63,447 bases of DNA, from positions 1 to 63,447 of IMG/VR virus record IMGVR_UViG_3300048583_000179; one strand, written 5' to 3'. The translations under genes were made by a program, and so were the position numbers. Below are positions 13,416-59,300 of this stretch, in pieces. The notes beneath the pieces were generated by a model, which was given only the letters and a program-made list of their open reading frames with translations, did no database searches and was not told the DNA's origin. Positions within the stretch are counted from its first letter, which is position 1; each line of letters starts with the position of its first letter. This DNA is from a virus (Duplodnaviria; Caudoviricetes).

Positions 13416-13458
13416 GGGGGGTGCGCACCAACGCGCACCACACTAACAGGGGGTAGGT

Positions 13459-13824: not shown

Positions 13825-13871
13825 GGGTAACCGGGTGGGGGGTAACCCCCACCCACCATACAGGGGGTACA

Positions 13872-14171
13872 ATGGAAGAAGCAACAGGGTGGTTGGTCTC
13901 AGTTACCATGCCGTACAGCCTAACTGAAGACAGGCACGTACAGGCTCTTCAAACCCTCACCAATTTCACTTCGCACATGCCAGACTTCTCCGAGGGAGAC
14001 GGGGGCACAAGCAGCGAAGAAGGGCGGGGCATGGTGTACGTGGAAGAAGTGTACAGCACCAGTCTCGGCCACGCCATGCAGTACCTCCAGCTCGCCCTGT
14101 CTCTGGGGGCGTACTGCGGGGATGTGGTGCCAGCCCGTATCGACGAAGAAGGGATACCCGTGGAGATGTAG
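13872..14171 (+). CDS. Small acidic early protein
   Basis: ATG after CATACAGGGGGTAC; MEEATGW...; no Lys, many Asp/Glu. Confidence 0.75.
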   Translation: MEEATGWLVSVTMPYSLTEDRHVQALQTLTNFTSHMPDFSEGDGGTSSEEGRGMVYVEEVYSTSLGHAMQYLQLALSLGAYCGDVVPARIDEEGIPVEM

Positions 14172-15832: not shown

Positions 15833-16098
15833 GTAGGCAGTTATCCTCCTGCAATCGCCCCTCCACGAAGCTCAACATCTCGGGTCAGGCGGTGACGACA
15901 GCCGGATGCGTGTCCTGCAATCTCTGCTCGGCCGAGCTCAAATCTAGATGTCTCGCTCCGGCGACATCGGGATCGGTCTCGGTCACACTATCTCGCCCGG
16001 TGGCGCTACAATCGCTGGACTCCATCGTTCAATTCCTCGTCATCTAACTCTCGCGTTCTCCCCTGTGGCGCGGGCGCAACACCCTGCTGTTGGGCGCA

Positions 16099-16185
16099 CG
16101 CCACATGTGGCGTGCCCGCTACGGTGCCAGGGCCACATGTGGCGCGGGTGCAACAAGCGGGTGTTGGGCGCACGCCACATGTGGC
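16099..16185. repeat. Three copies of the palindrome GCCACATGTGGC
   Basis: 16100-16111, 16132-16143, 16174-16185; copies 1 and 3 lie in a 24-bp direct repeat. Confidence 0.9.
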
Positions 16186-16206
16186 ACGCACGCACACCAC
16201 GGGGCA

Positions 16207-16278
16207 TAGCAAGGCCCGTGCCCCCTTGCGGGCACGGGCCTTGCTACCTGCCGCCCCCCGCCCCTTGCGGCGGGGGGC
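16207..16278 (-). terminator. Two tandem GC-rich hairpins (GCAAGG loops) downstream of 16294-16761
   Basis: 17-bp stem at 16207-16246 and 10-bp stem at 16253-16278; no U-tract. Confidence 0.55.
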
Positions 16279-16293
16279 TTTGCTACCGGGCTG

Positions 16294-16761
16294 CTAGGCC
16301 AGTGGTACGGCCCCGTGGGCTAGGGGGTTGGTGGCCCCTGCCGTGGCGGGGTTGGTGGCCACCACATGCGCTGCGCACCCCGCACACCATGCGGCGGGCG
16401 CGCCCGGTGCCTTGCCACTGGGGCCGCCCGGCACATACACCCCCTGCTTGGCGGTGCCCCGCGTAAGGTACCCCACGGCGTACCCGTGGGTGCCGCACAC
16501 GTTTACCCACAGGGGGCTGCCACCAAACGGGCGCAACATGTAAATGGTGGCGCCCGTTTGCTGGCACTTGCGCACCGGGCGGGCAGTGGCGGGCATGCCC
16601 TTGCCCGTGGCCAGTGCGGCGGCAACCGTGGCCAACTGGGTAGCCGTGGGGGTGCTTGTGGTGGCCGTGGGGGCGGTTGCCGCCACTGGGGCCGGGGTTG
16701 CCACTGGGGTGGCCGTGGGGGCGGCAGGGGCCGCCGTGGGGGTGCTGCGCTGCTTGGCCAT
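16294..16761 (-). CDS. Asp/Glu-free Zn-finger-like immediate-early protein
   Basis: 155 aa with no D or E; VNVCGTHG...YVPGG...AWCAGCA; own promoter and CTAATAGGTAGGT leader. Confidence 0.82.
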   Translation of the reverse strand: MAKQRSTPTAAPAAPTATPVATPAPVAATAPTATTSTPTATQLATVAAALATGKGMPATARPVRKCQQTGATIYMLRPFGGSPLWVNVCGTHGYAVGYLTRGTAKQGVYVPGGPSGKAPGAPAAWCAGCAAHVVATNPATAGATNPLAHGAVPLA

Positions 16762-16803
16762 GTGTACCTACCTATTAGGGCGGGCGGCATTGCCCGCACC
16801 CCC

Positions 16804-16831
16804 AAGTTAACCCATTTGCAACACTACGCAA
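16804..16831 (-). promoter_or_regulatory. sigma70-like promoter TTGCGT-N16-TAACTT
   Basis: Repeated family; lies inside the TC/GA-free island. Confidence 0.6.
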
Positions 16832-17031
16832 GGGGTGCGGCGGCACCCCCCAGTTACCCCACCCCCCACCCCCAAAAACGCGGCCCGCCCGCCCGCTGCC
16901 AGTCAGACCCAGCCCATGCGCCGATTTGAAAAATCCAACCCCAAAGCCCGCATGACGATGTTCATTGGTCTATAAAGATAAACGGGAGCCCCAGAATCAG
17001 GGCTCCCCGATTTTCTACGAGAGTTTAGGTA

Positions 17032-41059: not shown

Positions 41060-42928
41060 TCACACGCACTCACCCCAACTGTTGCCGATGGCGAGGTCAA
41101 CCAGCATTGGAACACGAAGCTGTACCACGTCCCGCATGATTTGAACTGCTCGCTGGACACTACCGTCTTGCGGGTCGTTCAGGCCCAGTTCGTCGTGTAC
41201 AGGCACGAGCGGTGGCACCTTAAATTCTTTCCAGTACTCAATCATGGCGAGCTTGGTTTGGTCGGCGGCACTGCCTTGGATTAGGGCGTTGAGTGCCTTG
41301 TAGGTAAAGCCATACCCCTCAGTTTCGGGCACGCCTTCCTGGTAGAAGCGACACTTGCGCCCGCCCAGTGTGAGAATATAGCCACGCTTCTTTGCTCGCC
41401 GCTTGCACTCGTCTGACAAGTCCTTAACGAAGGCCATCTTGTCAAAGTACGTGTCAATCAACGCTTGGCCTTCCGGCCCGGCCACTTCAAGCGGCCGACC
41501 CCGAACAGTCTTCCACTCGGTGGGCAGCCCAAGCTGATGACAGGTACTCGCACCCCCGCGCCCGTACATCAGGGCAAGGTTCATAATCTTTGCGGGCTTG
41601 CGCCCGATGCCCATGATCTGTGCCGTCAGGGTGTGCATGTCCGTAGTTACATCTTCGTTGTATGCCTTGACAAAGGCTTCAACGCTACGGAACCCGGCGA
41701 CTGATGCGTAGTGAACAGCCAATCGCGGTTCCTGTTGGCTGTAGTCGCAGCTCGCCCACTTACAGCCCTCTTCCGGTAGAAATATTTCCCGGATTAGCTT
41801 GCCGCTGAACGGGTCTTTTTCTAGGTTGGGCGGGTTCATTACATTGGGGTTCCGGGCCGACATGCGCCCGCTGACGGCCCCACCGTCTTCGCCACGCGCC
41901 AATGGAATAATTTCTGGGTGGATACGCCCGCTGACTTGCTTCTGGATAAAGAAGCCTTCAACGAAAGTGCTCACCGTCTTCATCGGCTTGCGGGCAGCAA
42001 CGATCAGCTTGGCCACCGGATCTTCATGGGCTAAGAGCCAGTCCTGCGTAAAGCTAGGCTTCTTTGTCTTTGGTGTTAGCGGGTAGGTCACACCGTGCTT
42101 GTCAAACAGCTTGGCAATATCTTCGCCACTGTTGACGTTAACGTGGAACCCGGCAGCCCGGTTAATCTCAGTCTGGGCCTCTTCGGCCATGCGGTGCAGC
42201 GTCTTGCGAGCAGGTTCCAGCTTGTCGGCATCAATGCGTATGCCGCGACGGCGCATGTCCAGTAGCACGTCCTGAAGCTCAATCTCCATGTTGTACACGC
42301 GCCACAGATCTTCAGCCGTCAAGTGCTCTTCCAGCACAAGCCACAGCGCACGGGTACGGGCGGCATCGTCTTCACCGTACTCGCCCACCTGTTCGGGGCG
42401 CAGCCGCCAGATCAAGCCCTTGTCAGGCTTCTTGTCCTTGCGCCCAAGCTTTTGACTGAGCTCAAGCAGTGCCCGGTTCATACCCTCTTGTGACTTACCC
42501 TTGCCCGTATAGTGGATGGCGAGGTTGTCAAGGCTGTAGCTGTCCCGGTACTCGTTCAGCAGGGGGGCAGCCGTCTGGGTGTCATGAACACGATGGAAGT
42601 GGATGCCTTCGGTGCTAAACCATCCACGGTCGTACATTGCGTTGTGAAAGACCCACTGTACATCGTCACCATGGGCATAGTGCCGAATCCACCTGAAGAC
42701 AAGGTCGGGATCAAAGTTGCCGCCCGGTTCGTGGCGAACCGGCCAATAGCCCTTGCCGCCTTCCCATGCGACACCTACGCCCACGATGTACCCGCGCTCG
42801 TCCATGGGCAAGCTACTGAAGCACCATCCCGGCCCGCGACCCGGCTCAATGTGGGGGTCACGGGTTTCGGTGTCAATGGCTACGAGGCCACTAAGGCGCG
42901 GAAACTCTGCGGGGGGTGTCCAGCTCAT
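41060..42928 (-). CDS. DNA polymerase, family A, with 3'-5' exonuclease
   Basis: AIDTET, FHNAMYD, SGRMSARNPN, CDYSQQEPR, KIMNLALMYG, NALIQGSAAD, VHDEL. Confidence 0.96.
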   Translation of the reverse strand: MSWTPPAEFPRLSGLVAIDTETRDPHIEPGRGPGWCFSSLPMDERGYIVGVGVAWEGGKGYWPVRHEPGGNFDPDLVFRWIRHYAHGDDVQWVFHNAMYDRGWFSTEGIHFHRVHDTQTAAPLLNEYRDSYSLDNLAIHYTGKGKSQEGMNRALLELSQKLGRKDKKPDKGLIWRLRPEQVGEYGEDDAARTRALWLVLEEHLTAEDLWRVYNMEIELQDVLLDMRRRGIRIDADKLEPARKTLHRMAEEAQTEINRAAGFHVNVNSGEDIAKLFDKHGVTYPLTPKTKKPSFTQDWLLAHEDPVAKLIVAARKPMKTVSTFVEGFFIQKQVSGRIHPEIIPLARGEDGGAVSGRMSARNPNVMNPPNLEKDPFSGKLIREIFLPEEGCKWASCDYSQQEPRLAVHYASVAGFRSVEAFVKAYNEDVTTDMHTLTAQIMGIGRKPAKIMNLALMYGRGGASTCHQLGLPTEWKTVRGRPLEVAGPEGQALIDTYFDKMAFVKDLSDECKRRAKKRGYILTLGGRKCRFYQEGVPETEGYGFTYKALNALIQGSAADQTKLAMIEYWKEFKVPPLVPVHDELGLNDPQDGSVQRAVQIMRDVVQLRVPMLVDLAIGNSWGECV

Positions 42929-43031
42929 GATAGCACAAGCAGCACGGCAAATGCGATGAGGCCAATGCCGATGGACAGCATCATAAGCCCGGTGACCGTG
43001 TAATACACGAAGCCAATGAGGCGGTAAATCA

Positions 43032-43274
43032 TTACTCGTCCACTACGAACAGGGCGACGAGCACAGCGGCTTCAGCGTGCTTGCCGTCGGCGATGAGTGC
43101 GGTGTGGATGCGCTTCAGCTTTTTGTCCAAGTCAAACAGGTATTGCAGGGTTTCTACTTTGCTGACGTTCAACATAGCGGTGGTTTCATCCTGTTCCTGT
43201 TTGTCCTCGGCCTCCATTACGGTGGCGTCAAACAAGTCCTGCAGATCGTCCATTTGCGTGGAATTAAGAAACAT
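43032..43274 (-). CDS. Small acidic protein
   Basis: CATAGGGGGTAC leader and own promoter. Confidence 0.65.
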   Translation of the reverse strand: MFLNSTQMDDLQDLFDATVMEAEDKQEQDETTAMLNVSKVETLQYLFDLDKKLKRIHTALIADGKHAEAAVLVALFVVDE

Positions 43275-43312
43275 GGGTACCCCCTATGAAAGTGGCGTGT
43301 GGCCTACCCTGC

Positions 43313-43341
43313 AATATAGCAGGGTGAGGCTCGTCACGCCA
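43313..43341 (-). promoter_or_regulatory. sigma70-like promoter TGGCGT-N17-TATATT
   Basis: Matches 13387-13415; upstream of the polymerase operon. Confidence 0.65.
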
Positions 43342-43502
43342 GTGTTAGGCGGTCGTAGAGGCTAGGGTAGCGATCTACGATTTCCATCAACCGTTGGTGC
43401 AAATTCCGGTTGATCCTACCTGTGATCTGCTGTCCACCCGGCGTGCTGCTCCACTCAAACAAGTCTTCTGCACTATGCGCGATGAGGCTACCGATTGCGA
43501 CG

Positions 43503-43901
43503 CTATTGGGTTTTATGAGCCCCAGTGGGGTCGTCATGCGGATCTCCCTCGTAGAGTGGGCTGACTTCTTCAAGAGGGAACGGATCTTGGATCGCGAGGA
43601 TGCCTTGCGCATATGCTTCTGCCTCAATCAAGATAAGGTAGCGTCGCAGGTCGCGAATGCTTTCAATGGCTGACTCCCCACCTTCGTCAACCCGTGCAAT
43701 AGCCTTGAACACGTCGTACCCGCATGCCTTGGCCTGTTCCTCAAGCCTGTCGGCCTTACGAATACTGACCATGAAGGCACCCGGCCCACCCCGCTTTTTC
43801 CAACTTGCACCATAGGCGATATCTTTGGCAAGGACGGCTTCCGCATCAGCCTCTGCCACCATGCGGATGAAGTCGCGGTAGCTTGTGTCGTTGTTGTCCA
43901 C
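43503..43901 (-). CDS. Nucleotide-modification-associated MazG-like protein (Nmad1/DUF1599-like)
   Basis: KDIAYGASWKKRG...RKADRL...ESIRDLRRYLILIE; adjacent to the synthase. Confidence 0.7.
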   Translation of the reverse strand: MDNNDTSYRDFIRMVAEADAEAVLAKDIAYGASWKKRGGPGAFMVSIRKADRLEEQAKACGYDVFKAIARVDEGGESAIESIRDLRRYLILIEAEAYAQGILAIQDPFPLEEVSPLYEGDPHDDPTGAHKTQ

Positions 43902-44905
43902 TAGACCTCCTTCCAGGTACGCCGCTCAAGCCATTCCACGCACGCCTTGCGCCAGTCCTCGGCGCGGCACTCCTCAGCGGCAATGATGGCAAGTCCCTTG
44001 TTGCCTTGCTTGTAGAACTCCCAACTGTCAAACAGCGGGGTCACCACATACTGAAAGTACGGGGTTTGATAGTCCTCAGTGGGGTTGATGCCCTGTGCCT
44101 CGTTGGTAAATTCGCGCAGGTCGCGATCCCACTGGGCCTGAGTAACGTCGCCTGTGAATAGGGGGTAGGGGCGCACCAAGCCATTCTCATACGGGTCAAC
44201 ACGGAAAGACCCATGCTGAACAACGTTGTCCAGCTCATGCTTTTCCCAGACGTCCGTGTAGGCGTGGAAGTTGCCGCTCACCTGCTCGTACCACCCCACC
44301 TCGGCCTGAACGCACCCCGCCACATACTCTTGGATAACGCTGAAGTGAACTGCATTGGCCCCGAACGTGCCCCAAATCATATCGTTGCTGCGGTTGAACA
44401 CCAACATGTTCAGGCGGTTGGCGGGGTCAACCTCTAGCTTGATGCCCACATTGCAGGGGATGTCATTGCTGTTGGCCCCTACATCCTTTGGAAAGTAGAT
44501 GGGCACGTACACCCGCCGACTGTACCTGTCCTTCTGTAGCATGGTGACGGCTTCAGCCAACATGTCGCCGCCAGTGTCACGACGCATGCGGAACCCGTAG
44601 GCACCGTAGAAGTACTCACCGTCGTCACTGTACTTGGCGATCTGGCTATTGAACTGGGCAAGCCAACGAACGTCCTTGCGCCCGGCCAAGATCCACAGGC
44701 TTTCAAACAGGTGGAAGTACGGGTTGGCATCACGGTCCTCACCGAACAGCACCCGCTCCATGGGCCGACGGTAGGTTGTCACCACGGGCTCGTTCGCCAC
44801 ATAGGCCGACCCGTTACGGGTCTTTTGAATGTAGCCGTAGTAGTGAAGCAACCGTGCTCCGAGCACGTATGCCTCGTTTACATTCCGTGCATTAATGGTG
44901 TGCAT
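43901..44905 (-). CDS. Thymidylate-synthase-fold enzyme, probable dUMP hydroxymethylase
   Basis: RDANPYFHLFE, DIPCN, NRSNDMIWG..GANAVHFS, NFHAY, as in YuA/M6-type enzymes. Confidence 0.85.
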   Translation of the reverse strand: MHTINARNVNEAYVLGARLLHYYGYIQKTRNGSAYVANEPVVTTYRRPMERVLFGEDRDANPYFHLFESLWILAGRKDVRWLAQFNSQIAKYSDDGEYFYGAYGFRMRRDTGGDMLAEAVTMLQKDRYSRRVYVPIYFPKDVGANSNDIPCNVGIKLEVDPANRLNMLVFNRSNDMIWGTFGANAVHFSVIQEYVAGCVQAEVGWYEQVSGNFHAYTDVWEKHELDNVVQHGSFRVDPYENGLVRPYPLFTGDVTQAQWDRDLREFTNEAQGINPTEDYQTPYFQYVVTPLFDSWEFYKQGNKGLAIIAAEECRAEDWRKACVEWLERRTWKEV

Positions 44906-45025
44906 TCAGTCTCCTTAGGTAAAGAGGGCCACTAGGTAACCGCCCCTAGTATAAGCAGTAGAACACCCCAAAGACAAGCCCCAAGAAATGCCCAAAGCAT
45001 TGCGCACCTCGGGGTTACGTTGCAA

Positions 45026-45970
45026 CTAGGACGCGGCTTTCCGCCAGTCATACGTCACCTTGGGTCGCCCCTCGCCGGTTTTGGCTCGCAGGTACTTGTC
45101 AGTTTCGCACAAGCTGTGTTCAATGTCCCGCATTTCTAGAGAACCCGGAATGTGATTACCCAACGGGCTACCGACATCATTGGCCACGGCAAGCAGCCCC
45201 CGCATAAGGGCTAGGGCCGTTTGCTGTCGCAGAGGGGCATCAGCGATGCGCCCTGCCAGTCTATTTAGCCCCCGCAGTGCCCCCGGCCCGGCATTAGCCC
45301 ATGTCATGATGTCTGGAGCATTGCGAAGGTACCGTGTCCACCGAAGGTCGGTGACCACTTCGTAGGCAATGAACGGCCCGAAGCCATTGTAGTTGCGAAA
45401 CCACTTCCAGACCTGCTCCAATGAATATTGGGTGCCGCCATTCACAGCAGGGTCAAACAGTTCATCAAAGTCACGGCTTTCGCCCGCACGAGTGGCGTCC
45501 CAGATTGGCTTCAGCACATGGGTAAAGACGAAGTCTTCCTTTGGCATGCTCTTACCCCCGTTCGTAATGAGGTAGGCATTACCAAAGGTCTTCAGCCCGT
45601 TGGCCTGACGGCCCGTATAGATTGACTTCCATTGGTCGTAGTCAAACTCATCTGGCAGGGCGGTTTCGCGTAGTAGCTGACGCAGCGTACCGGGCCAATT
45701 CGTATTCCGCGCCATGGCGAGTAGAAACCACAGGTTGTGGTGCTTCGCGTAGGGCTTACGAATATTTTCTTCAATCCAGATGGTGACGGTGTCCAGCTCG
45801 CGAAACACGTTGCAGAATCTATAATCGCGGAGAATAGGGTCATCCGTCCACGGACCCGAATTCCCACTCTTCCTCCGTAGGTAGATCTTGTGCCGCTCGT
45901 TGATCCAGTAGAAGAAGGGCTCGGCGTCCAGCTCCCATTCTTCATCGTCTACTGGGATGGTTACTTTCAT
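45026..45970 (-). CDS. 5-hmdU DNA kinase helical-domain protein (aGPT-PPlase1 family)
   Basis: FFYWINERH..Y...GPWTDDPIL..YRFCNVFRELD, GFGPFIAYEVVTDL, GPGALRGL, DIEHSLCETDKY. Confidence 0.88.
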   Translation of the reverse strand: MKVTIPVDDEEWELDAEPFFYWINERHKIYLRRKSGNSGPWTDDPILRDYRFCNVFRELDTVTIWIEENIRKPYAKHHNLWFLLAMARNTNWPGTLRQLLRETALPDEFDYDQWKSIYTGRQANGLKTFGNAYLITNGGKSMPKEDFVFTHVLKPIWDATRAGESRDFDELFDPAVNGGTQYSLEQVWKWFRNYNGFGPFIAYEVVTDLRWTRYLRNAPDIMTWANAGPGALRGLNRLAGRIADAPLRQQTALALMRGLLAVANDVGSPLGNHIPGSLEMRDIEHSLCETDKYLRAKTGEGRPKVTYDWRKAAS

Positions 45971-46242
45971 ATACGAGGCTTTCTTTTAGGGGGCGTTCCA
46001 AGCTGTGTCAGCACTTCGGTCAGTACGGTCAACGCGTCTTTGTGCCGTACTCCATCAGCTACGAGGGCTTCAGTTTCCAGCCACTTTTGTTGAAACATGG
46101 CTGTCGGTATCTTAAAGAGTAGAGGCCGTACCGCATCCAAGCGAGCTTGATTGCACCGTAGACAGTTGTCCACGAGGCAATAGTCATCGCACAAGGCGTT
46201 ACGAAACGCCTCAAGGATTTGGGCCTCCAGGTCCTCTTTCAC
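45967..46242 (-). CDS. Hypothetical protein
   Basis: Coupled ORF inside the modification cluster. Confidence 0.55.
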   Translation of the reverse strand: MKEDLEAQILEAFRNALCDDYCLVDNCLRCNQARLDAVRPLLFKIPTAMFQQKWLETEALVADGVRHKDALTVLTEVLTQLGTPPKRKPRI

Positions 46243-46829
46243 AAACCGAGAAGCTCAATGGTGTGTTCCACTGCCATCTCGTGATTGATCCACACCCACG
46301 GCACCCCGTCGGCCTTGGCTTTCTGTTCGCACCGCAGGACGTCATTGTACATCTTTTCCGTGTTGTGCGTGTTGAACTGGCGGGACTTGCCCTTGTTCTC
46401 ACGGCGGTCGCCTACCCGCTGAATAGCCTTGTCAAGCGGCGTGTCCAGTGCCGCGAGTACCATGCGGCCCGGATACTCGTTCAGGGCCATATCAGCGTAC
46501 CGCTGATAAATGTGGCTAATGAGCAAGCCTTCGAACAGTACCTTGTGCCCCATGGCCCGCAGAGTGCGAACCCTGTCCTGAATGATGTCTTGTGCCCGGC
46601 CCTTCTCAGTAATGCCGTCACAGCCCCCGCAGTCGTTTTGGTAGTCGCCGACGATGGCGAGCTTGGGGGTGGCGGTCATGTACCAGTCGTACTTGATCTT
46701 CTTTTTACCTGCGCTGTTGCCGATGGCCGGAAACTCGGGCTTCATGTCAAACGCTTTGATAAGCTCCGTCATCAGCGTTGACTTGCCGCTGCCACTTGTA
46801 CCACGGATGTTGATGATGTCGTACGGCAC
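46239..46829 (-). CDS. P-loop kinase of thymidine-hypermodification clusters
   Basis: IINIRGTSGSGKST, GDY...CGGCDGI, VLFEGLLIS, LDTP...RV..RR. Confidence 0.85.
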   Translation of the reverse strand: MPYDIINIRGTSGSGKSTLMTELIKAFDMKPEFPAIGNSAGKKKIKYDWYMTATPKLAIVGDYQNDCGGCDGITEKGRAQDIIQDRVRTLRAMGHKVLFEGLLISHIYQRYADMALNEYPGRMVLAALDTPLDKAIQRVGDRRENKGKSRQFNTHNTEKMYNDVLRCEQKAKADGVPWVWINHEMAVEHTIELLGL

Positions 46830-46915
46830 GACCCCCTCCTCGTTGAATGAAGTACAGGGTGCCCCACTAGTAGAGCACCCTGCACCCGCTTCGCTCCGCC
46901 CTGATGAGGCGTGGC

Positions 46916-47704
46916 TTACTCGGCCGTGGCTTCGCCGGAGTCATCAGCACCGACAGCCGCCTTGGCCTTCTTAGCCTTCTTTGGCTTGGCAGCCTTCGGT
47001 TCCGCGCCCTCCTCGGCCTCAGCAGCCTTCGCCTTCGGCGGCTTCGGCGGCTCGGGGATCACGTGCTCCAGCGGGGCACGGAGGCCCGTGGGCAGCACGA
47101 GCTGATAGTACACCCGGCCATCCACGATGCTGGACTTGATGCCGTAGCCGTGCACCTTGTAGACGCGGCCCGACAGAGCGCGGCCCTTGCGCTCCAGCGC
47201 CGACTTCAGGTCATCCGCGAAGACACCCGCGTACAGCAGGTCGATCATGTGAGCGATCTTGCTGCCCTGCCGCGCCGCCTTGATCTGGTCCAGCGCCTTC
47301 GGCTCGATCTGCGTCAGGTGCGGGCCACGGGGCGTCGCCTCCGCGCCCTCCGCCTTCGGCTTACGGTTGCGCTTCTTCTTGCCGCCCTCTTCCACGGCCT
47401 CGGTCGCCTCGTTGCTCTCGCTTGCACTCATGTTGTACACCGCTCCGTATCCCGCCATAATGGCGTTTTCGTGTGAAGTGAACCGCTTGATCTTGATCGT
47501 GTGCGTGTGGTTGAACGCACCCAGCAGAATTGACATGGGCACTTCTTCCAAGTGCTCACGGTTACGCTGCCAGAGAATCCACCGACCCTCCTTGGGATTA
47601 TGGGTTGTGACGCGAGCGTCTGGCGGCACTCGCGTCACCCGGAACTTGCCTTCCGGGATGCGCTCAATGAGCAATGACGTGTGAGTTGCTGGATACTGAA
47701 CCAT
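46916..47704 (-). CDS. Putative DNA-binding protein with Lys/Ala-rich tail
   Basis: wHTH-like core (RQGSKIAHMIDLL...HGYGIKS); PKKAKKAK tail; CTAACAGAGGGGT leader. Confidence 0.6.
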   Translation of the reverse strand: MVQYPATHTSLLIERIPEGKFRVTRVPPDARVTTHNPKEGRWILWQRNREHLEEVPMSILLGAFNHTHTIKIKRFTSHENAIMAGYGAVYNMSASESNEATEAVEEGGKKKRNRKPKAEGAEATPRGPHLTQIEPKALDQIKAARQGSKIAHMIDLLYAGVFADDLKSALERKGRALSGRVYKVHGYGIKSSIVDGRVYYQLVLPTGLRAPLEHVIPEPPKPPKAKAAEAEEGAEPKAAKPKKAKKAKAAVGADDSGEATAE

Positions 47705-47776
47705 CGTTACGTGTACCCCTCTGTTAGAAAGCCCTTGGCTTCTAGCTACTGAAACGTCGGCACCACCTACCCCACT

Positions 47777-47805
47777 AATATAGCTCCGGGTGACAATACA
47801 GGCAA
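47777..47805 (-). promoter_or_regulatory. sigma70-like promoter TTGCCT-N17-TATATT driving the modification cluster
   Basis: Near consensus; -35 box inside the 47797-47828 inverted repeat. Confidence 0.7.
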
Positions 47806-47831
47806 GGGGGAGTTTTCCCTTGCCTGTACAG

Positions 47832-48275
47832 TTAGGCCGGACTAATGAAGCAAGTCAGGGTGATTTGCTTGGCTGAGCCAGTGTAGCTTTCCAGCACGCC
47901 CATGATCAAATCGCCTTCGGCAACTGCCGTGGTGATATCGGTCATTACCGATGAATCGTAGGCCACATCGGCGGTGAGGTTGGGCTTGGTTGAGCCAACC
48001 CCAAAGATGCTGACGCCATTCTTTAGAATGTCAAACTGGGCGTCACAGGCTACGTCAGCATCAACCATAAAGCGGGAGAAGCTGCCCGCCCCATTGGCAC
48101 GAACGCGACTTGCTTGACCGGGAACGAGCACCCCGGCATAGTAGGCATCACCCCATTCAAAGACAGCGGCGAACTTGCGCGTGCCTACCCCGGTCGCGCC
48201 TTGCGGGCCAACGGCAGCGACGGTGATAGCAACCGCTGCCGGAACCTGAGTTACAATCGTAATGGGATCGCTCAT
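47832..48275 (-). CDS. Putative virion fibre-associated protein
   Basis: VGPQGATG collagen-like start; FDILKNGVSIF...KP...AVAEGD domain typical of phage fibres. Confidence 0.55.
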   Translation of the reverse strand: MSDPITIVTQVPAAVAITVAAVGPQGATGVGTRKFAAVFEWGDAYYAGVLVPGQASRVRANGAGSFSRFMVDADVACDAQFDILKNGVSIFGVGSTKPNLTADVAYDSSVMTDITTAVAEGDLIMGVLESYTGSAKQITLTCFISPA

Positions 48276-50729: not shown

Positions 50730-52286
50730 CTAGAACTCCTCGGTTGGCTTGGCTGCCGCCACCTTGGGCTTAGACTCAAGCACTACTGGGTCTTCTACTT
50801 TAACCCCCCAGACGTTGACACCCTTGCCCGCCACATTCCAAAACTTCTTTTCCGAGCCGCGCTGATGCAGCAACAGCGACACGGCTTGTTGATTCTTATA
50901 GCTGATGCGGTGGTTGTCAAGGAAGGTGTACAAGTCAGTGATACGAAACCAGACAACATTGCCGTCACGGTACGGCTTGCCGCCAACGAAAATCTCTTCA
51001 CGGCTTGCGGCGTACACCTTCTGTGTACAGAACTTAATGATCCATTCCCAAAGCTGCCCGGTGGGACTAGCCTCTTCCGGCATCTGCACGATGTCGGCGG
51101 TTGGCACGATACGGTTCAAGTACGACAACCACTTCTTGGGCGTCATAGCTGGAAACGGCACGATGCCAATCTGTGACATGCATTGCTTGTTGAACTCGTC
51201 CTTGCCGTAAAACTGCGCCGTGTTCATCTGCACCCGCTTGCCGTCAATTTCCATGGTCCAGATTGGCTCTTCACCGGGGCCATGGTCGTAGCGGGTCAAC
51301 GCCTGTATCTCGTACTCGCGATAGGCGTCCTCGTCGTTGCCAATGTCACCGATCCCAAACTGGCGAGCGAGACATGCGCTTCTTTGGCAGTACGAATTGA
51401 TGGGGGGCAGCTTGCAGCGATAGGTGTAACTCTTACGGCTGACCGACTTCTTCAAGTGCTCAATTTCTTCTGAGCCCAGCTTGGCCATCGCCGTATTGTA
51501 CTGATCGACTTGGTCTTTCCAGCTGTCCGGGTACCGCTTCTTCAGGTACACTACAACGTTGAACATGCCGTCATTGCGCGTGCCTTCAACGAAACCGCCT
51601 TGTGCTTCAAGCTGCTGAAGGCAGGGTGGCCCTTCGTAGAACAGGTCACTTGTCTGCACAATCCACGACTTCATTAGCTTGGCGGGCGGCACCCGTGCCG
51701 CTTGGGCGGCAGTAAGGAACTGCGCCAGCGACGCCGGGCGACCGTCTATTACGGCATAGCGCTCCGTAGCATACGCCTTATGGTACGGCAGGTTGATATA
51801 GTTTCCAATGTCGTCTTCGTTGAAGCGACTGGTCTGCTTTGGAAACTTTTCCGTCTTGCTGGACATGCCCAACATGGCCGACCACTCAGTCAGCCTGTCC
51901 TGCATTACACGGGCGGGAACAGGGTCGGTGCAAAAGCAGTAGAAGTGACCGCCGCCGCTCTTACTGCGACACAGCACAAGCGGCAGACCCTTTTCTTTAA
52001 TGGTCTGTTCTGCCTTCACGTGATCCATGCGTGGGTTATCGTAGTCAATTGCGCCGAACATGACCGTGTCATCTTCGCGCAACATGATAATCCCAATGGT
52101 CGGACCCGTGCCGTCAAGATGTGCTACAAAGTGATCGTGTTGTACTTGACCACGAACGACACGGTTTTTGGTTTCTACTTTCCCGGCTTTGGTGAGCTGC
52201 CCGGTCAGCTTTGTTTCGCCGTATGCCTTAGTGTATCCGTCGAACAGGGCCGCGAAGCGGCGAACATCCAGTTCGTCCAATTGCAT
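50730..52286 (-). CDS. Archaeo-eukaryotic-type primase / replication protein
   Basis: FGAIDYD, RSKSGGGH, GNYINLPY, GPPCL...GTRND (PriCT-like). Confidence 0.85.
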   Translation of the reverse strand: MQLDELDVRRFAALFDGYTKAYGETKLTGQLTKAGKVETKNRVVRGQVQHDHFVAHLDGTGPTIGIIMLREDDTVMFGAIDYDNPRMDHVKAEQTIKEKGLPLVLCRSKSGGGHFYCFCTDPVPARVMQDRLTEWSAMLGMSSKTEKFPKQTSRFNEDDIGNYINLPYHKAYATERYAVIDGRPASLAQFLTAAQAARVPPAKLMKSWIVQTSDLFYEGPPCLQQLEAQGGFVEGTRNDGMFNVVVYLKKRYPDSWKDQVDQYNTAMAKLGSEEIEHLKKSVSRKSYTYRCKLPPINSYCQRSACLARQFGIGDIGNDEDAYREYEIQALTRYDHGPGEEPIWTMEIDGKRVQMNTAQFYGKDEFNKQCMSQIGIVPFPAMTPKKWLSYLNRIVPTADIVQMPEEASPTGQLWEWIIKFCTQKVYAASREEIFVGGKPYRDGNVVWFRITDLYTFLDNHRISYKNQQAVSLLLHQRGSEKKFWNVAGKGVNVWGVKVEDPVVLESKPKVAAAKPTEEF

Positions 52287-52370: not shown

Positions 52371-53219
52371 TTAGAATGCCTTGTCGGACACAACTTCGGC
52401 CTTGGCCTCGGCCTCGAACTCTTCCAGCTTAACCTTGGCCCGGCCCGCCGTGACCAGATCCCGGAACTCGCGGGCGGCGAGGTAGGTGTTGCCTCCGTTG
52501 GGAAGCGTGACCAGATCCGGGCCGTACTCGATCTTGACACCCATCCAGCTGCCCTGATCGTTGCTCTCGGGCACCGTGGTGAAGCGGTACGCCTTGTAGA
52601 ACGGTGCCGGGCGGAAGGGCACCCCGGTCGTGGGGTGCCCGATTTGCAAGGTGCTGATCAGGCTGTTGAAACGGCGGGACTTCTTGAGCTGCGACCCGTA
52701 CAGGTTGACCACGACTTGGCTGAACCCACCATTGTCGTTGACAATGAAGCCGTAGTACATACCGGACTGCACGAGGTGATTGCCGTTGGGCAACACGAGC
52801 TTGCCCTTGTCGTCGCGGGTGGCCGACTTCATAACGCTGTCGTCCATGCCGTGGTCCTTCACCAGACCGCCGCCCGTATCGCGCGGACGCCACTCGGTGT
52901 AGGACGGGCGGAACGCGCACGGCACGAAGAGGAAGCCCGTCTCCCCCTTCCAGTGCTCCATGGTCACGTTGTTGAAGAAGTCACCCTCTTCCAGCCCCTG
53001 AATGTACTCCGCTGCCCGCTTGTCAATCTGCGGGGACATCTTCTGGGCCACCTTCACAAACGGGATGGCCACATCCTCGGCCCTAAACCCAAGATCCTGC
53101 TGCGCATCCTCCATCAGCAGCGAGGGGTCCAGCGCCGCCGCGAGGGCGGTTGTCTGCGAGGCTCCCGGTGCCGCCACAGCCGTTCCGGGTGTCTTGGCGG
53201 AATCAGCCTTGCTTGCCAT
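52371..53219 (-). CDS. Putative ssDNA-binding protein
   Basis: DVAIPFVKVAQKMSPQ, EWRPR..GGG, SQLKKSRRFN, ESNDQGSW; acidic C-terminus ending in F. Confidence 0.7.
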   Translation of the reverse strand: MASKADSAKTPGTAVAAPGASQTTALAAALDPSLLMEDAQQDLGFRAEDVAIPFVKVAQKMSPQIDKRAAEYIQGLEEGDFFNNVTMEHWKGETGFLFVPCAFRPSYTEWRPRDTGGGLVKDHGMDDSVMKSATRDDKGKLVLPNGNHLVQSGMYYGFIVNDNGGFSQVVVNLYGSQLKKSRRFNSLISTLQIGHPTTGVPFRPAPFYKAYRFTTVPESNDQGSWMGVKIEYGPDLVTLPNGGNTYLAAREFRDLVTAGRAKVKLEEFEAEAKAEVVSDKAF

Positions 53220-53245
53220 GATTTGCTCCTTGAGCGTTTGGTTGG

Positions 53246-53809
53246 CTACTCTTCATCATCAGTGGTTGTTTGGCCCGCGACTACGGCCCGCTGCCCCACA
53301 AAGATGTGAAGCAGGTCGTGGGGCAGGTCAGCCCCGGTGGGAACGACCTTCTTAACCCATGCCTTCAGGGTAGAAGGATGAACACCTTCCTTGACGGTGG
53401 TGCGGCCTCCGCGATTTTCTGCGATGGCGGCGAGGCCCATGGCCTCCGACCGCATTTCACGGTCAAACGCTGCTTCCACCGTGTACTTGATGAGGTTACC
53501 GTGGCCGTTGTCCAACAGCCACTTCATTGCATCGGCATGGCCCGCCTTGGGAATGCGGGCGCTGACAATGTTTTCCAGGTTGACGGTGCTGCCGCCGATG
53601 GTTACCGTGTGAATGTTATCGGCAAGCATGGCCCCCGGCAGCGTCACTTCCTGTAGCTCGCGCAGCTTTGCCTTGGCTTCCTTCAGCTTGGCTTCCTGCT
53701 CGGCCACATACTGCACTCCCTTGATTACGCGCACCGCGAGATCCAGCGTCGCCTTACTGGCGTGGCCCTTGCTGTCTGCTGCGAAGTCAATCGTAGCACT
53801 GTTAGTCAT
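53246..53809 (-). CDS. Conserved replication-module protein
   Basis: WLLDNGHGNLIK...VHPSTLKAWVK motif. Confidence 0.7.
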   Translation of the reverse strand: MTNSATIDFAADSKGHASKATLDLAVRVIKGVQYVAEQEAKLKEAKAKLRELQEVTLPGAMLADNIHTVTIGGSTVNLENIVSARIPKAGHADAMKWLLDNGHGNLIKYTVEAAFDREMRSEAMGLAAIAENRGGRTTVKEGVHPSTLKAWVKKVVPTGADLPHDLLHIFVGQRAVVAGQTTTDDEE

Positions 53810-54198
53810 GATGCCGCCTGTTGAATTCCTGAGTAAATGGTCATCCAGACTGGGTTGTACTTCGCCCCGATGTCGGTACGCTGCCCGTTCGGTAGCTTAG
53901 GTCGATCGTACTTCAGCCACCGCACCCGCTGTACGCCTCGGCGTTCCAGCACGATACCTGCCATGAGGGCGGCAAGGCTGTCACCACCTGCCCACACGAG
54001 GTAGTCCACCTCGGGGTCAAACGCTTCCAACCGATCAATGACAATCTGCAAACACTTGTCCGGTCGCTGGCTTGGCGTATCGCCTGAGCGGATAACGGTT
54101 ACTACTTCACCGTATTCATCCAGCTTGTCCAGCTTGGGCGTCCGACCATTACGATCCACGGTCGGTTGTGCAATGAGGTACACCTTCGGCTTGCGCAT
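53806..54198 (-). CDS. Conserved hypothetical protein
   Basis: PKVY...EYGEV...FDPEVDYLVWAGGD...WLKYDR; start re-called. Confidence 0.65.
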   Translation of the reverse strand: MRKPKVYLIAQPTVDRNGRTPKLDKLDEYGEVVTVIRSGDTPSQRPDKCLQIVIDRLEAFDPEVDYLVWAGGDSLAALMAGIVLERRGVQRVRWLKYDRPKLPNGQRTDIGAKYNPVWMTIYSGIQQAAS

Positions 54199-54265
54199 AA
54201 CTTGTGACCCTGTTCCGGTTACTGCCGCATACAAGGTAGCACTCACCCCCCTTTCGCGTAAGGTG

Positions 54266-54472
54266 TTAGACATCACCGGGCCTCTTCTTGGCCAGTAGGT
54301 TGTCCTTGTACCACTCCAGCTTCCTTGACAACGGGTTCCATACTTGAACAGCGTCGGCAGTAAACCCGTTGATGTCTACCTGAATCCAGCCGTCCAGCCA
54401 CAACCTGTCGCCTAGCTTCATGCCGTTGCGGGCTACGAGCTCCGTCCTACCGCACTTCGGGCAATTGTTCAT
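54266..54472 (-). CDS. Hypothetical protein
   Basis: CPKC N-terminus; coupled start. Confidence 0.5.
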   Translation of the reverse strand: MNNCPKCGRTELVARNGMKLGDRLWLDGWIQVDINGFTADAVQVWNPLSRKLEWYKDNLLAKKRPGDV

Positions 54473-54705
54473 GGCCGTAGCCCCTGAACGATAACCAGCT
54501 CGTCTAGCCTGAACTGGTTTTCGCCGTAGTTGTCCTGCTCTTCCTGCGTCAGTGCTTTTTCAATGGCTGCCACTGCTTCGTGGAGTGAGGCGTAGCCACT
54601 TGCGAATGGGTAGTTCGGGTGTCCGACATCCCAAGGATACTGACGCTTGGGCTCCACCAAACGACCACGAGGGGTGCGCCGATAGACTTCGTAAAGAACC
54701 CTCAT
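54469..54705 (-). CDS. Hypothetical protein
   Basis: MRVLYEVYRR...; ATG overlaps helicase stop. Confidence 0.55.
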   Translation of the reverse strand: MRVLYEVYRRTPRGRLVEPKRQYPWDVGHPNYPFASGYASLHEAVAAIEKALTQEEQDNYGENQFRLDELVIVQGLRP

Positions 54706-56210
54706 AGCCCCACCACTTCCACGAGCTCGGACTTGGCGCGAGTTGCCGCCACGTACATGAGGTTGATTTCCTGGCCCATTTGCCAGTCCTGCCGGGCGTA
54801 CTTGGACGGCTGATACAGATTGCGTCCGAACCAATACACCCGCTCCCACTCGCGGCCCTTGGCCTTGTGGATAGTGCTAAGGGTGAGCCGCTTGGGCTGC
54901 CCGTAGGTGTCGTCAAACATGGTGTTGAGTCGCTCGCGCAGGTCGCCCACGGTTTCCACCGTGTCCATCATTACGAACAGGGTTTCCACCCGGTCGCTGA
55001 GCGCGTCGGCCCGCTGTTCCTGCCCCTTGGCGAGCAACCGCTGCCGCTCGCGGTCCAGGTACTCTTCCAGCTTGGCCCGCAGCACGGTGAGGTCTGTAGT
55101 CTTGTACTTGTTCACCAGTACGAGCAGCCCCTTGCCGATTTCCTTGCCCTCAACGTGGCACGGAATGCCCCGCCGAATGAAGTGGAATGCGAGGCTGACA
55201 AGCGGCTTCGTGTTGCGGCACAGCACGGCAGATTCTGGCCCCAAGCTATCGCGGTCCAGCTTGCGGAACTCGGGCTCCATCATTTCCCGAACTGCTCCTT
55301 CAGGCGCGGTAGGTGCCGCCTCAATGTGGTTGACCCACTGCTTCGCGTGCCGAACGACCGCCTTGGGGCAGCGATAGGTGATGGTCAGCGGCAGGTACGA
55401 GCAGTTAAACTCGCGGCCAATGATGTCAAGGCTGTCGTGGTTGGCCCCGGTAAAGCCGTAGATTGCTTGGTGCCTGTCGCCCACCGCAATCAAGCGCCCG
55501 CCCGCACGTAGCATCTTCTTGGCGAGGGCGCGGCGACTATTGTTGGTGTCCTGAGCCTCGTCAATCAAGACCCAGTCGTTTTCCCACATTTTGAGGTCGT
55601 GGATCAGCGGGCCGTAAATCATGTCGTCAAAGTCAATGAGCTTGCTGTTGGCGTCCACCCCGGCCCGCAGCAGCCGAATGCTCCAGTCAATGCCGTCGCT
55701 GATCATTTGGTCAACGTCCAGCGGCCCCGCACCCTCAGTGGCGAGGGTTTCGTCCAGCTCGAAGTGGTCTACGAAGTAGTTCCACTGGCTAAGGTCGTCA
55801 AACGGGGTAAGGAACCCCACCCCCGCCTGTTTGGCGAGGCTGACACCCTTGACAGCGAAGTTGCGCAGGGGCAGCGGCATGTTGATCTGCTCCGCCAACT
55901 GCATGGACTTCTTTTCGTCCAGCGGCACCTTGCCGAACGCCTTCAGCATCGCCTTGTAGCCGAAGCTGTGGAACGTGCCCGCGCTCACGTTGCGACCGAT
56001 GCCCATGGTAGCCATGCGGTCTTTGATTTCGTCGGCGATTTTCTTGTTGTACGCGCAGAACGCGACGCTGCCTTGCAGCAGCTCCAACATGTGAAGCAGG
56101 GTAGTCGTCTTGCCGCTACCCGCCACCGCTTCGACAATGCCTGAGCCTTTGCCATTCGTGGCAAAGTCAAAGACTGCCTGTTGCTGTGGACTGGGGACAA
56201 ACTGGGCCAT
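54702..56210 (-). CDS. Second UvrD-like SF1 helicase
   Basis: EAVAGSGKTTT, IDEAQD, VGDRHQAIYGF, STIHKAKGRE, YVAATRA. Confidence 0.92.
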   Translation of the reverse strand: MAQFVPSPQQQAVFDFATNGKGSGIVEAVAGSGKTTTLLHMLELLQGSVAFCAYNKKIADEIKDRMATMGIGRNVSAGTFHSFGYKAMLKAFGKVPLDEKKSMQLAEQINMPLPLRNFAVKGVSLAKQAGVGFLTPFDDLSQWNYFVDHFELDETLATEGAGPLDVDQMISDGIDWSIRLLRAGVDANSKLIDFDDMIYGPLIHDLKMWENDWVLIDEAQDTNNSRRALAKKMLRAGGRLIAVGDRHQAIYGFTGANHDSLDIIGREFNCSYLPLTITYRCPKAVVRHAKQWVNHIEAAPTAPEGAVREMMEPEFRKLDRDSLGPESAVLCRNTKPLVSLAFHFIRRGIPCHVEGKEIGKGLLVLVNKYKTTDLTVLRAKLEEYLDRERQRLLAKGQEQRADALSDRVETLFVMMDTVETVGDLRERLNTMFDDTYGQPKRLTLSTIHKAKGREWERVYWFGRNLYQPSKYARQDWQMGQEINLMYVAATRAKSELVEVVGL

Positions 56211-56302: not shown

Positions 56303-59300
56303 TTAGTTCACCCACCTTGCCTTGACCCGACGCTTGCCAAGCAGGGGATCCGGCCCCGTGCTTGTGATACCCGCTGCGAAGGCATTGGCGTTTGTCACCG
56401 CGAGCAGGATGGTACGAATGCTAACCCCGGCAATACGAGTGACGGGAAGAGCTTCGGCGGTCGCAGTCGCAATACCTAGACTTCTCGCCGTGCCGCCCGG
56501 CGTGGACGTGACAGTGAACGCAACGACGTTGACCTGAGCAAGCCCAATCGGTCGCGACGTTGTGCCGAGAGTGCGAGTAACTGGGAACGCCTGTGCCGAA
56601 CCGACTGCAAGCGCGAGGCTGCGATTAACTGCGCCCGCCGTGCGCGTCACAGGCTGGGCTACCGCAGAAGTAGAGGCAAGGCCAAGCGTCTTTGTCACAG
56701 CACCCACCGTGCGCGTTACCGCTTGAGCGACAGCCGTTGCCACGGCAAGCGCGATCGTACGCGATTGACCGCCAAGCGTCACTCCAGTAGCAAACGCACT
56801 CGCCGTTGCGACGGCGAGGCTGATGCTGCGCGACACCGCACCAGAGGTACGGGTTACTGCGAATGGAACCGCACTGACAACCGCGAGACCAATCGTCTTT
56901 GCCGCTTCCCCAACGGTGCGCGTCACAGCGAACGCAGTGGCGGTTGCCGTTGCGATAGAAATAGAGCGGCTGATGCCGGTGGTCAGTGTCGCAGCGAACC
57001 CGGTCGCCGTTGCTTCGGCGAGGCCAACCGTGCGACTGACAACCGCAGTTACCGAGACGGCGAACCCTGTCGCCGTTGCTTCAGCAAGTCCAAGGGTGCG
57101 CGTCGTAGCTCCCACCGTGCGCGTCACAGCGAATGCGACAGCATTGGCAGCAGCGAGGCTGACTGCACGAGACGTGGCCCCCACGGTGCGAGTCACAGCA
57201 AACGCGCTCGCGGTAGCCGTCGCCAGCGACGTAGCCCGTGAAACGACCGCTGTACGAGCCACAGCCTGTGCGACGGCTGTGGCTGACGCCAATCCGATAG
57301 CCCGCTGCGTGGCACTCAGGCTGCGTGCCACCGCAAAAGCCGATGCCGTAGCCGACCCCAAACCGATAGCGCGGCTAGAGGTGCCGGGCGTTAGCGAGAG
57401 GGGCAACCCTTGGGCAGTAGCCGACGCCAACCCTAGCGCCCGGCTAACCGCCCCCACCGTGCGCGTCACAGCGAGCGCCTGTGCCGTCGCTGACGCCATC
57501 GAAGCTGCTACCGTTACTGTAGCGGTGCGGGCAACCGCTTGAGCAACTGCCGTGGCGACGGCGAGACCTGTTGCGAGGTTTGTCCCTCCAGCGGGTGCCG
57601 TAATTCCGGCAGCGAAGCCGACTGCCTGTGGCGTGCTGTCAACCACCACGTTGTCAACGTAAGCGTCGCCAACAGAAGTCGTATGGTAGACGCCGAACCC
57701 GGCGTATCCACTAGTCAACCTAGAAGCGTCCGTGTCGCTGAACGTTCCCCACGCCCCGCCATCAATACGATAGCGTAGAATAACTGAGGTTGGGGTATTC
57801 AGGGCCATGAACTCTACGTCTGAGTCAGCACCAGATGTGTAGCTGAGGACGTTGCTGTTCAGTACCGTAAACGACCCGGCGACGTTGCGAGCAAGTGCGA
57901 CCGCACTTCCAGTACCGTCTGAGTAGAGGTAGTAGGCAGTGTTCGTTCCGGGTGCGGCTCCAGCCCTGAGCGCCAGTGCCCAGTATTGACCAGTAGCCCC
58001 GCTGCGAACTCTTGCGCGAACCGCCTGTGGTCCAGTCGGTGCCCCCGGCCCTTCCCACCTGTAGTAGATATCCTGATTGGCGGTATCACCACGAACGCGA
58101 TTGTTCTCAATTACGAGGTTGCCACTTCCAACGAACCGAACCCAGTCAGCGTCGTACGCTTGCAGGTTTTGGTTAGAGGCTGAGAAGGTATCAACACCCG
58201 CAGCGACACTGACAACCGCCGTGCGGGTGACAGCTTGAGCGGCTGCCGTCGCCACAGCGAGGCCCGCAGTCCGGCTGACAACTGCCGTGCGAGTTGTCTT
58301 GAACGCTTGGGCAACGACGGCGTTCTCTGGAAACAATTCAAACTCATCAATCCAAACAGCGGTGCTCCCGGTGTCTTGGAACATGTGGAATGGAAATGCA
58401 AACCCGTCCGTAGGATCAAGGGGCGAGCCGCCCCACCCCGACACGTCCTGCGACCAGACAAGTGCGCCGTTGATCCAAAATCGTACGAGCAGGTCTTGGT
58501 ACGCAACTTCGACCGTGATCTCCTCACCCTCGGTGTAGGCATACGCGGTCGTATTTCCGTTTGAATCAAAGTACGTGCTGAACAGCGCCGAGCCAACCCT
58601 CAGGTAGCCCGTGTTCAGTGCGGTAACGCTGAAATCGAAGTAGTCGCCGTTCGTGTATTCAACTCGAAAGTAAGTGTCTGCAGATTCTCTACAGCTCATT
58701 TTCCAACGAGCGCGGAACTTCTTGCCACCCGTCAAGCTGTTCATCCGAGCACCGAAGTACGAGCCGCCGATGCTTCCAATCTCAAGCCGGTTGTTACGAA
58801 TGACCGCTGTTTGGTAGCCGTTCTGGTGCGCGACCCACGTTCCACCGATGTCCGCCGCCGTGCCGACCAAGTTCGTGCCGGTCGTGTCGGTGAACATGTC
58901 ACGAATGGCCGGACCACCGCCAGCGAGTCCAACAGTACGGCTGATCTCCGCCGTGCGGTTCACTGGAATAGCCACGGCACCGGACAGCTCGTTCGGGCCG
59001 TCAACGGGAGTCAGGCTACCCGTCAACGTTAGATTGGCTGTACCGCTTCTATCCAGTGTGTCGTTGTCACCGTGCCAGTTGAGGATCAGGTTGGTAGCGC
59101 TGATCGGGTCGCGCGACCACATTTGGCGCGTGGCCTCTTCCTCAGTAAGTAGGCGATCCCAGTAGTACACAGCGGCAATCGGCTCAACCCAGTTGGTTCC
59201 ACCGACCCGAAGTTCAGTTGGAGTCCAGCCGGTATCACCGCCGAAGCCACCCGTTGCCTTTTCAATTGCCGCAGCGTCAAGCTTTCTAATCCAAAGCTTG

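Follow-up and report, generated by a model that had tools for sequence, protein, structure and literature searches.

Thymidine hypermodification is a main route by which phages escape restriction, and the clade-2 amino acid:DNA transferases (ADDT, PF18724) that take part in it are now well studied; a clade-1 paralogue, the aGPT-Pplase of family PF18723, occurs in phages M6, ViI, PhiW-14, SP10, PaMx11 and SH-Ab 15599. Here we compare these systems with a gene cluster at positions 43503-46829 of the IMG/VR virus record IMGVR_UViG_3300048583_000179 (Duplodnaviria; Caudoviricetes), which was analysed over its whole length of 63,447 bp and is called the window below. The cluster is predicted to encode a dUMP hydroxymethylase-like protein, a P-loop kinase and a clade-1 protein, and no clade-2 transferase was found in the genome.

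The clusters of the M6/YuA type, which are associated with 5-(2-aminoethyl)deoxyuridine (5-NedU) and are represented here by Yuavirus SN1, Bordetella FP1 and Pseudanabaena Pam3, share with the window the order and strand of the genes for the kinase, the PF18723 protein, a thymidylate synthase (TS) homologue and the DNA polymerase, with 30-48% identity between corresponding proteins. They differ from it in carrying in addition an ADDT, a PLP enzyme, a radical SAM enzyme, Nmad5, an HD nucleotidase and a dCMP deaminase; the window lacks them all. The proteins shown to phosphorylate 5-hydroxymethyldeoxyuridine (5-hmdU) are of the P-loop type, namely M6 gp54, ViI gp67 and gp243, PhiW-14 gp37 and SP10 gp186, as given in PMC8989533. 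The transferase PaMx11 gp46 (PUGT, PDB 8z2n) adds glycine to 5-phosphomethyldeoxyuridine (5-PmdU); in it, Glu243 and Thr244 bind the metal and Cys247 attacks C6 (PMC11472151), and the SH-Ab 15599 paper gives the residues equal roles and reports a metal requirement (PMC13458397).

SP10 is the only experimentally characterised phage that is built like the window, with a kinase, a PF18723 domain and a TS homologue and no PF18724. Its DNA contains alpha-glutamylthymidine, according to PMC8989533, and a search of its 143,986-bp genome gave no PF18724 match at E ≤ 1, while the Pam3 and SN1 controls were clearly matched in the same search. In SP10 gp186 the kinase (PF18748, E 2.8e-23) and the PF18723 domain (E 2.4e-44) are fused in that order, whereas the window encodes them separately, and the two PF18723 sequences are 27% identical. 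SP10 also has a large neighbouring protein, gp185, which PMC5889632 lists as radical SAM, and the window is without a radical SAM gene. The initial annotation of the window, made by a model from the DNA letters and their open reading frames (ORFs), had reasoned that a cluster with no transferase may leave its base unfinished. Since SP10, which is known to finish a hypermodified thymine, has a clade-1 domain only, this inference falls, although the precedent does not prove that the clade-1 domain is a transferase.

The window carries direct terminal repeats, which we determined to be 127 bp long, and has a CheckV completeness of 100%. The genome is thus complete, and absences from it carry weight. 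Positions 43503-46829 hold five minus-strand ORFs arranged head-to-tail (Table 1). A hypermodification cluster derived from 5-hmdU is recognised by a dUMP hydroxymethylase-like TS homologue, a 5-hmdU DNA kinase and a PF18724 transferase (Lee et al. 2018, 2021), together with tailoring enzymes such as a PLP decarboxylase, a radical SAM enzyme, an FAD lyase or an acetyltransferase. As judged from homology, the window would encode the hydroxymethylase and the kinase, and neither PF18724 nor a tailoring enzyme is present. The TS homologue, the PF18723 gene and the P-loop kinase gene are all intact and stand in the order seen in M6, Pam3 and the metagenome contig L030, which bears out the identification of the locus as a thymidine-hypermodification cluster.

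The TS homologue shares 40% identity with the dUMP hydroxymethylases of SN1 and FP1. Among solved structures the CMP hydroxymethylase MilA comes closest (E 4.8e-15), with thymidylate synthases at E 2.7e-5 or worse. In the MilA alignment the catalytic Cys is kept and an Asn of the window protein replaces an Asp of MilA. We take this Asn to fit a uracil substrate, in keeping with the general literature on TS and dCMP hydroxymethylases and with the cytosine specificity of MilA. The PF00303 and phrog_5131 matches, the identity to the SN1 and FP1 proteins and the preference for MilA over TS agree with the dUMP-hydroxymethylase-like synthase of the initial annotation. A plain thymidylate synthase, with nothing in the DNA modified, was considered for this gene and rejected, because MilA outscores the thymidylate synthases and because the gene is syntenic with those for the kinase and the PF18723 protein.

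The predicted kinase is 36% identical to that of L030 (E 9e-23), a protein that itself scores 63.8 bits on PF18748, and shows 30-31% identity to its counterparts in SN1 and FP1, which occupy the position of M6 gp54; it is also homologous to the Pam3 kinase. Invariant in nine aligned kinases are R9, G10, G13, S14, G15 and K16 of the Walker A motif and G68, G69 and D71 of a CGGCD stretch. A sequence search of the PDB with the window protein returned chance P-loop matches only. The homology to the L030, SN1 and FP1 proteins and the conserved Walker A motif argue for a diverged P-loop 5-hmdU DNA kinase, though the PF18748 score lies under the cut-off. The best PHROG of this protein (phrog_800) is labelled 'terminase small subunit', and the GenBank record of SP10 gp186 is labelled likewise; the label is probably a propagated misannotation.

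The clade-1 protein is the sole PF18723 match of the genome and covers profile positions 6-277 of 281. Pfam names the family '5-hmdU DNA kinase, helical domain', and the initial annotation took the protein for a kinase and counted more than one kinase in the cluster. The family assignment stands; the kinase role does not, and one kinase remains. The AlphaFold2 model (predicted local distance difference test score, pLDDT, 87.9; predicted template modelling score 0.86) is all-helical, of the HhH-glycosylase type, and has no P-loop. The top Foldseek match of the model is PUGT (8z2n_B; probability 0.98, E 0.051, TM 0.41/0.44), and VIA alignment to PUGT gave a Z score of 10.1 with a root-mean-square deviation of 4.1 over 222 aligned residues. 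VIA Z scores of 8-10 were obtained with PUGT, DUF2419, Mag1, EndoIII and Ogg, and the modelled fold alone would place the protein only in the HhH glycosylase superfamily. A PDB sequence search gave no match at E ≤ 10.

E284, C288, E289 and K292 do not vary among 15 aligned clade-1 proteins, of which at least 90% also have H285. In ten aligned clade-2 proteins the E and C of an ET..C motif are invariant and match E284 and C288 of clade 1. When the two clades were compared with hhalign (E 0.0037, probability 8.9%), the E-x3-C motifs and the FGP[FW] stretches were superposed, though with weak support. PaMx11 gp46 shares both elements with the window protein, to which it is only 10-14% identical, and has its metal-binding Thr where the window has His. 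The PF18723 protein thus appears, on sequence grounds, to be a remote HhH paralogue of the amino acid:DNA transferases that keeps their E-x3-C motif. Because this catalytic motif is kept, a transferase-like enzyme is present in the window genome. A complex prediction for the kinase and the PF18723 protein, with the 91-aa protein encoded between them as partner, scored 0.00; it gave no verdict and carries no weight either way.

Six-frame searches of the complete genome with hidden Markov models (HMMs) gave no PF18724 match at E ≤ 10 and no match to Nmad5, the TAGT glycosyltransferase, radical SAM or dCMP deaminase families. Our own clade-2 HMM, built from ten sequences and run unfiltered on all 868 six-frame segments of at least 40 aa, had a single match under E 0.5, and this fell on the PF18723 ORF (E 0.032, 9.1 bits). 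This protein, which does not match the PF18724 family model, nevertheless appears to hold the Cys of that family and the Glu four residues before it, and it is the only ADDT-like protein of the genome. Pfam scans that took in 101 window ORFs, doubtful ones included, found no PLP, FAD, acetyltransferase or glycosyltransferase family. In tblastn searches with 35 SN1 and FP1 proteins, only the polymerase, the TS homologue, the PF18723 protein and the kinase matched the window. The HMM, Pfam and tblastn results uphold the earlier statement that the cluster is without a clade-2 transferase, tailoring enzymes or a dCMP deaminase, and the HMM check that had been proposed for the aGPT-Pplase and kinase families yielded one PF18723 match, one sub-threshold PF18748 match and no PF18724. 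A transferase homologue among the hypothetical proteins, which would have overturned the first reading, was not seen with the clade-2 HMM.

The nearest relative found of the module is the contig L030, with identities to the window of 49% for the PF18723 protein, 42% for the primase, 40% for the TS homologue, 39% for the helicase, 38% for the polymerase and 36% for the kinase. Its genes run DUF3489-like, ADDT, FAD oxidoreductase, kinase, small ORF, PF18723, TS, YfbR-like HD, 154-aa and polymerase, and those of the window follow this order. The DUF3489-like gene at the flank is common to both clusters, as is a small ORF that separates the kinase and PF18723 genes. They differ in that L030 has an ADDT (85.5 bits) and the FAD gene before the kinase and an HD gene after TS, whereas the window has 86 bp before the kinase and no HD gene. 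The L030 ADDT, FAD and HD proteins matched nothing in the window at E ≤ 1 by tblastn, and no remnants were seen. The cassette in front of the kinase varies among these clusters, being ADDT-PLP-radical SAM in M6, ADDT-FAD-acetyltransferase in the PaMx11-like PA_LZ03, ADDT-FAD in L030 and none in the window.

Two further complete genomes resemble the window in having PF18723, a kinase and a TS homologue and neither ADDT nor TAGT. One is Microbacterium phage SirVictor, whose P-loop kinase is a Ploopntkinase3; the other is IMG/VR record G013, whose kinase was detected by blastp and in which a UDG-like gene separates kinase and TS. Their PF18723 proteins are only 25-37% identical to that of the window. 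We surveyed the 20 IMG/VR records carrying a PF18723 homologue. ADDT was present in nine and TAGT in nine, one record (G007) having both; three (G008, G011 and G013) had neither, G013 being complete. PF18748 was detected in 9/20. In eight of the 20, all fragments (29-80% complete), TAGT (PF20691) accompanied PF18723 with no ADDT and no detectable kinase (loci L004-L008, L012, L017 and L018; for example L006:8992-9774), and in several of these TAGT lies beside PF18723 and the TS homologue, which suggests a glycosylated 5-hmdU pathway with clade-1 participation. A tree was made of 26 PF18723 proteins, without three near-duplicates (L006 of L005, L018 of L004 and L020 of L021) and without the ViI-like phages, which matched only partially. 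In it ADDT-bearing and ADDT-free rows are interleaved; the window belongs to no well-supported clade, and by path SN1 and FP1 lie closest to it. From the gene contents compared here, the constant part of these loci is PF18723 and the TS homologue, which together with the kinase form the core, and the variable part is the ADDT.

Taken together, we hold it somewhat better than even that the window specifies a core-only, 5-hmdU-derived thymidine-modification pathway that has no transferase and tailoring cassette and is finished by the clade-1 enzyme. By homology, the TS homologue would make 5-hmdUMP and the phage polymerase would incorporate 5-hmdU into DNA, where the P-loop kinase, like its assayed homologues, would convert it to 5-PmdU. 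The clade-1 protein may then finish the base. We envisage that Cys288 might attack C6, that a Glu284-bound metal, with His285 standing in for the transferase Thr, might assist departure of the phosphate, and that the exocyclic methylene so formed might then be captured. For the final base, an untailored small-molecule adduct (an amino acid or polyamine, as in SP10) seems a little short of an even prospect, and capture of a small amine or amino acid is favoured by the SP10 precedent and by the need for a selective benefit. Thymine formed by reduction, the unassigned step from 5-hmdU to T, is a lesser though substantial possibility; it is favoured by the occurrence of M6-type orthologues in phages with one named hypermodified base besides T and by the lack of an assigned T-forming enzyme. 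The conversion of 5-hmdU to thymidine was described in 2018 as 'still unknown' (PMC5889632), and we found no later assignment of the enzyme. A final base that keeps its phosphate, or one of some other kind, we regard as improbable in either case. That the PF18723 protein is an active enzyme on activated 5-hmdU, which either installs an untailored or new C5 substituent or makes thymine, we judge to be evenly balanced.

The initial annotation had also entertained a base on which nothing displaces the phosphate, so that 5-phospho- or pyrophosphomethyluracil would be the mature form. On such a view PF18723 would be only a DNA-binding or base-flipping helper of the kinase. The lack of PF18724 anywhere in the genome, the fusion of PF18723 to the kinase in SP10, the words 'kinase, helical domain' in its Pfam name and the failure of full-text searches to find a clade-1 catalytic activity in print all fit such a role. 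A passive helper would, however, not need the active-site Cys and Glu of the transferases, which are invariant in clade 1, and, according to PMC8989533, neither the M6 kinase nor the isolated SP10 kinase domain needs the helical domain in order to phosphorylate DNA. Eight of the 20 surveyed records, all of them fragments, moreover have PF18723 without a kinase, and 5-PmdU is treated as an activated intermediate in PMC8989533 and PMC11472151. We therefore consider this explanation distinctly unlikely. The real transferase might instead be a protein elsewhere in the genome, such as the 91-aa, 132-aa or 262-aa protein or another hypothetical protein. Many window ORFs are without a family, and the 132-aa family is large, unnamed and conserved in all related clusters; yet it also occurs in the ADDT-bearing Pam3 and L030, the 91-aa protein is a very small helical one with two relatives only, the 262-aa protein looks DNA-binding, and the Pfam scans of the window ORFs gave no other base-modifying family. 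We rate a transferase of this kind as very improbable.

It is also conceivable that the cluster is decaying after loss of its ADDT cassette, with no adaptive modification and a DNA of T and/or plain 5-hmdU. L030 has ADDT and FAD genes where the window has 86 bp, and an HD nucleotidase besides, and a dTTP-excluding enzyme was not recognised in the window; both observations would be expected of a remnant. The ORFs are nevertheless all intact with their catalytic residues kept, tblastn with the L030 proteins detected no pseudogene remnants, and core-only clusters recur in the unrelated complete genomes G013, SirVictor and SP10. L030 itself is only 36-49% identical in these proteins, which indicates an old split. 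On balance a remnant is unlikely.

Several observations weigh against the core-only pathway that we favour. The kinase lies below the Pfam cut-off of its family (24 versus 27 bits), and the eight TAGT records with no kinase, fragments though they all are, warn that clade 1 may act on something else than 5-PmdU and may do without phosphorylation of its substrate. The PUGT Z score of 10.1 is tied with those of DUF2419, an enzyme of queuine salvage (Z 10.3), and Mag1 (Z 9.9); the homology between the clades is remote, given the hhalign probability of 8.9%, the 9.1 bits of the clade-2 HMM and the missing Pfam ADDT match; and His285 stands where the transferase has its metal-binding Thr. No function is assigned to clade 1 in the titles and abstracts found by full-text searches on the family names, and in PMC8989533 the omission of M6 gp55 from a lysate mix left glycine transfer unaffected. 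A very divergent SP10 transferase could have escaped the HMM. The HD nucleotidase, the dCMP deaminase and a recognised dTTPase are absent from the window, which bears on the extent to which T is replaced by 5-hmdU.

Table 1. Features of the cluster at 43503-46829 and its flanks, in window coordinates.
Feature	Coordinates	Strand	Basis or remark
Family-A DNA polymerase	41060..42928	-	PF00476 E 8.9e-50; downstream of cluster, as in relatives
132-aa helical protein, Pam3 gp54-like large unnamed family	43503..43901	-	40% identity to Pam3_54
Predicted dUMP hydroxymethylase-like thymidylate-synthase homologue, 334 aa	43901..44905	-	PF00303 E 4e-17; phrog_5131 E 7.5e-96
Clade-1 aGPT-Pplase (PF18723, 'HMUDK_hel'), 314 aa	45026..45970	-	165.7 bits on PF18723, cut-off 25
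91-aa helical Cys4 protein, basic C-terminal tail	45967..46242	-	no Pfam/PHROG match
P-loop 5-hmdU DNA kinase homologue (M6 gp54 type), 196 aa	46239..46829	-	PF18748 24 bits, cut-off 27
86-bp junction	46830..46915		slot where L030 carries ADDT + FAD oxidoreductase cassette
262-aa protein, possibly DUF3489-like DNA-binding, Lys/Ala-rich tail	46916..47704	-	flanks empty cassette slot

The 132-aa protein had been called MazG-like, a description that we did not recover: it has no Pfam, PHROG or PDB sequence match, and hhalign found no match to the Pam3 MazG or the Pam3 NTP pyrophosphohydrolase. Its Pam3 homologue, gp54, is annotated 'nucleotide modification'. The family comprises at least 2057 representative clusters at E ≤ 0.001, with a Pfam domain over the region in none of 40 sampled relatives, and its invariant residues are Y30, S33, W34, R37, G39, R48, K49, R52, D84 and Y88. 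In relatives the gene lies between those for the hydroxymethylase and the polymerase, adjoining either one in the Pam3 and L030-type clusters. An AlphaFold2 model is helical and of low confidence (pLDDT 49.8).

The 91-aa protein, which the initial annotation put forward as a possible finisher of the base, is unlikely to be an enzyme, being small, helical and of the Cys4 type. Its only two relatives are 60-61% identical, lie on contigs of about 1 kb and share with it C18, C22, C27, C30 and the basic C-terminal tail; a protein atlas gave nothing at ≥0.9 and a metagenome scan no match. The 262-aa protein matches a homologue at the same position in L030 with 25% identity over query residues 41-225 (E 1.6e-7). 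That homologue has a weak DUF3489 match, and an atlas match of the window protein at 0.84 is a lead only. The polymerase is 37-38% identical to those of SN1 and FP1.

The remainder of the genome has siphovirus-type structural genes, including a tape measure, capsid protein E, a tail completion protein and a T4-type terminase, the last at most 35% identical to cyanophage siphovirus terminases. Megablast of positions 17000-41000 (24 kb) against phages gave no match, so that no isolate is close. A sequencing-run search returned one DNA dataset, stored as contigs, with 10% of the sampled words and listed no RNA dataset, and a promoter and terminator scan of 42800-48000 gave a signal no higher than in shuffles. 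A T4 DenV-like pyrimidine-dimer DNA glycosylase is encoded at 689-1138 on the minus strand (PF03013, E 4.7e-24), and a DenV-like homologue in L006 (7325-7819) lies some 330 bp upstream of PF18723, from which a single small ORF separates it. At 52371-54276, also on the minus strand, three consecutive genes resemble the gp34-, gp33- and gp32-like families of Pam3 (PF23977, PF23984 and PF23992); the trio has a primase gene (50730-52286) on one side and a gene for a UvrD-like helicase (54702-56210) on the other, distant from the plus-strand structural genes. A minus-strand ORF of 1439 aa at 56303-60622 has no Pfam match and an unusually high GC at second codon positions (0.57), and the adjoining ORFs of 429 and 280 aa are likewise without an assigned family.

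A stretch free of TC had been reported in the genome, and dinucleotide counts confirm that it is real. Positions 16060-16902 (an 844-bp stretch) hold no TC and no GA, so that TC is absent from both strands, and positions 13272-13896 (626 bp) hold no TC, with 13397-13629 also lacking GA; in the rest of the genome TC and GA each occur about 40-80 times per kb. The first of these stretches contains direct repeats of 56 nt, recurring GCCACATGTGGC palindromes and a perfect hairpin of 17 nt, and gave no Rfam match. A possible minus-strand ORF at 16294-16761 is devoid of Asp and Glu, and no homologue of it was found. Any tie of the TC-free stretches to the sequence context in which T is modified, or else to a nuclease or deaminase specific for TC, is speculative.

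The core-only cluster isolates the clade-1 enzyme of a known pathway. With only the hydroxymethylase, the kinase and clade 1, this complete genome offers a naturally minimal system in which the clade-1 function could be assigned, and the three proteins together with 5-hmdU DNA should suffice to reveal how clade 1 acts. The three recurring contexts of PF18723 (with kinase and ADDT, with kinase alone, and with TAGT and no kinase) widen the 5-hmdU-derived base chemistry that is to be expected. If the adduct outcome is true, the virion would contain a base not yet described as a mature base, and if the clade-1 protein acts as we propose, this would be the first function for a family that is present in every known thymidine-hypermodifying phage.

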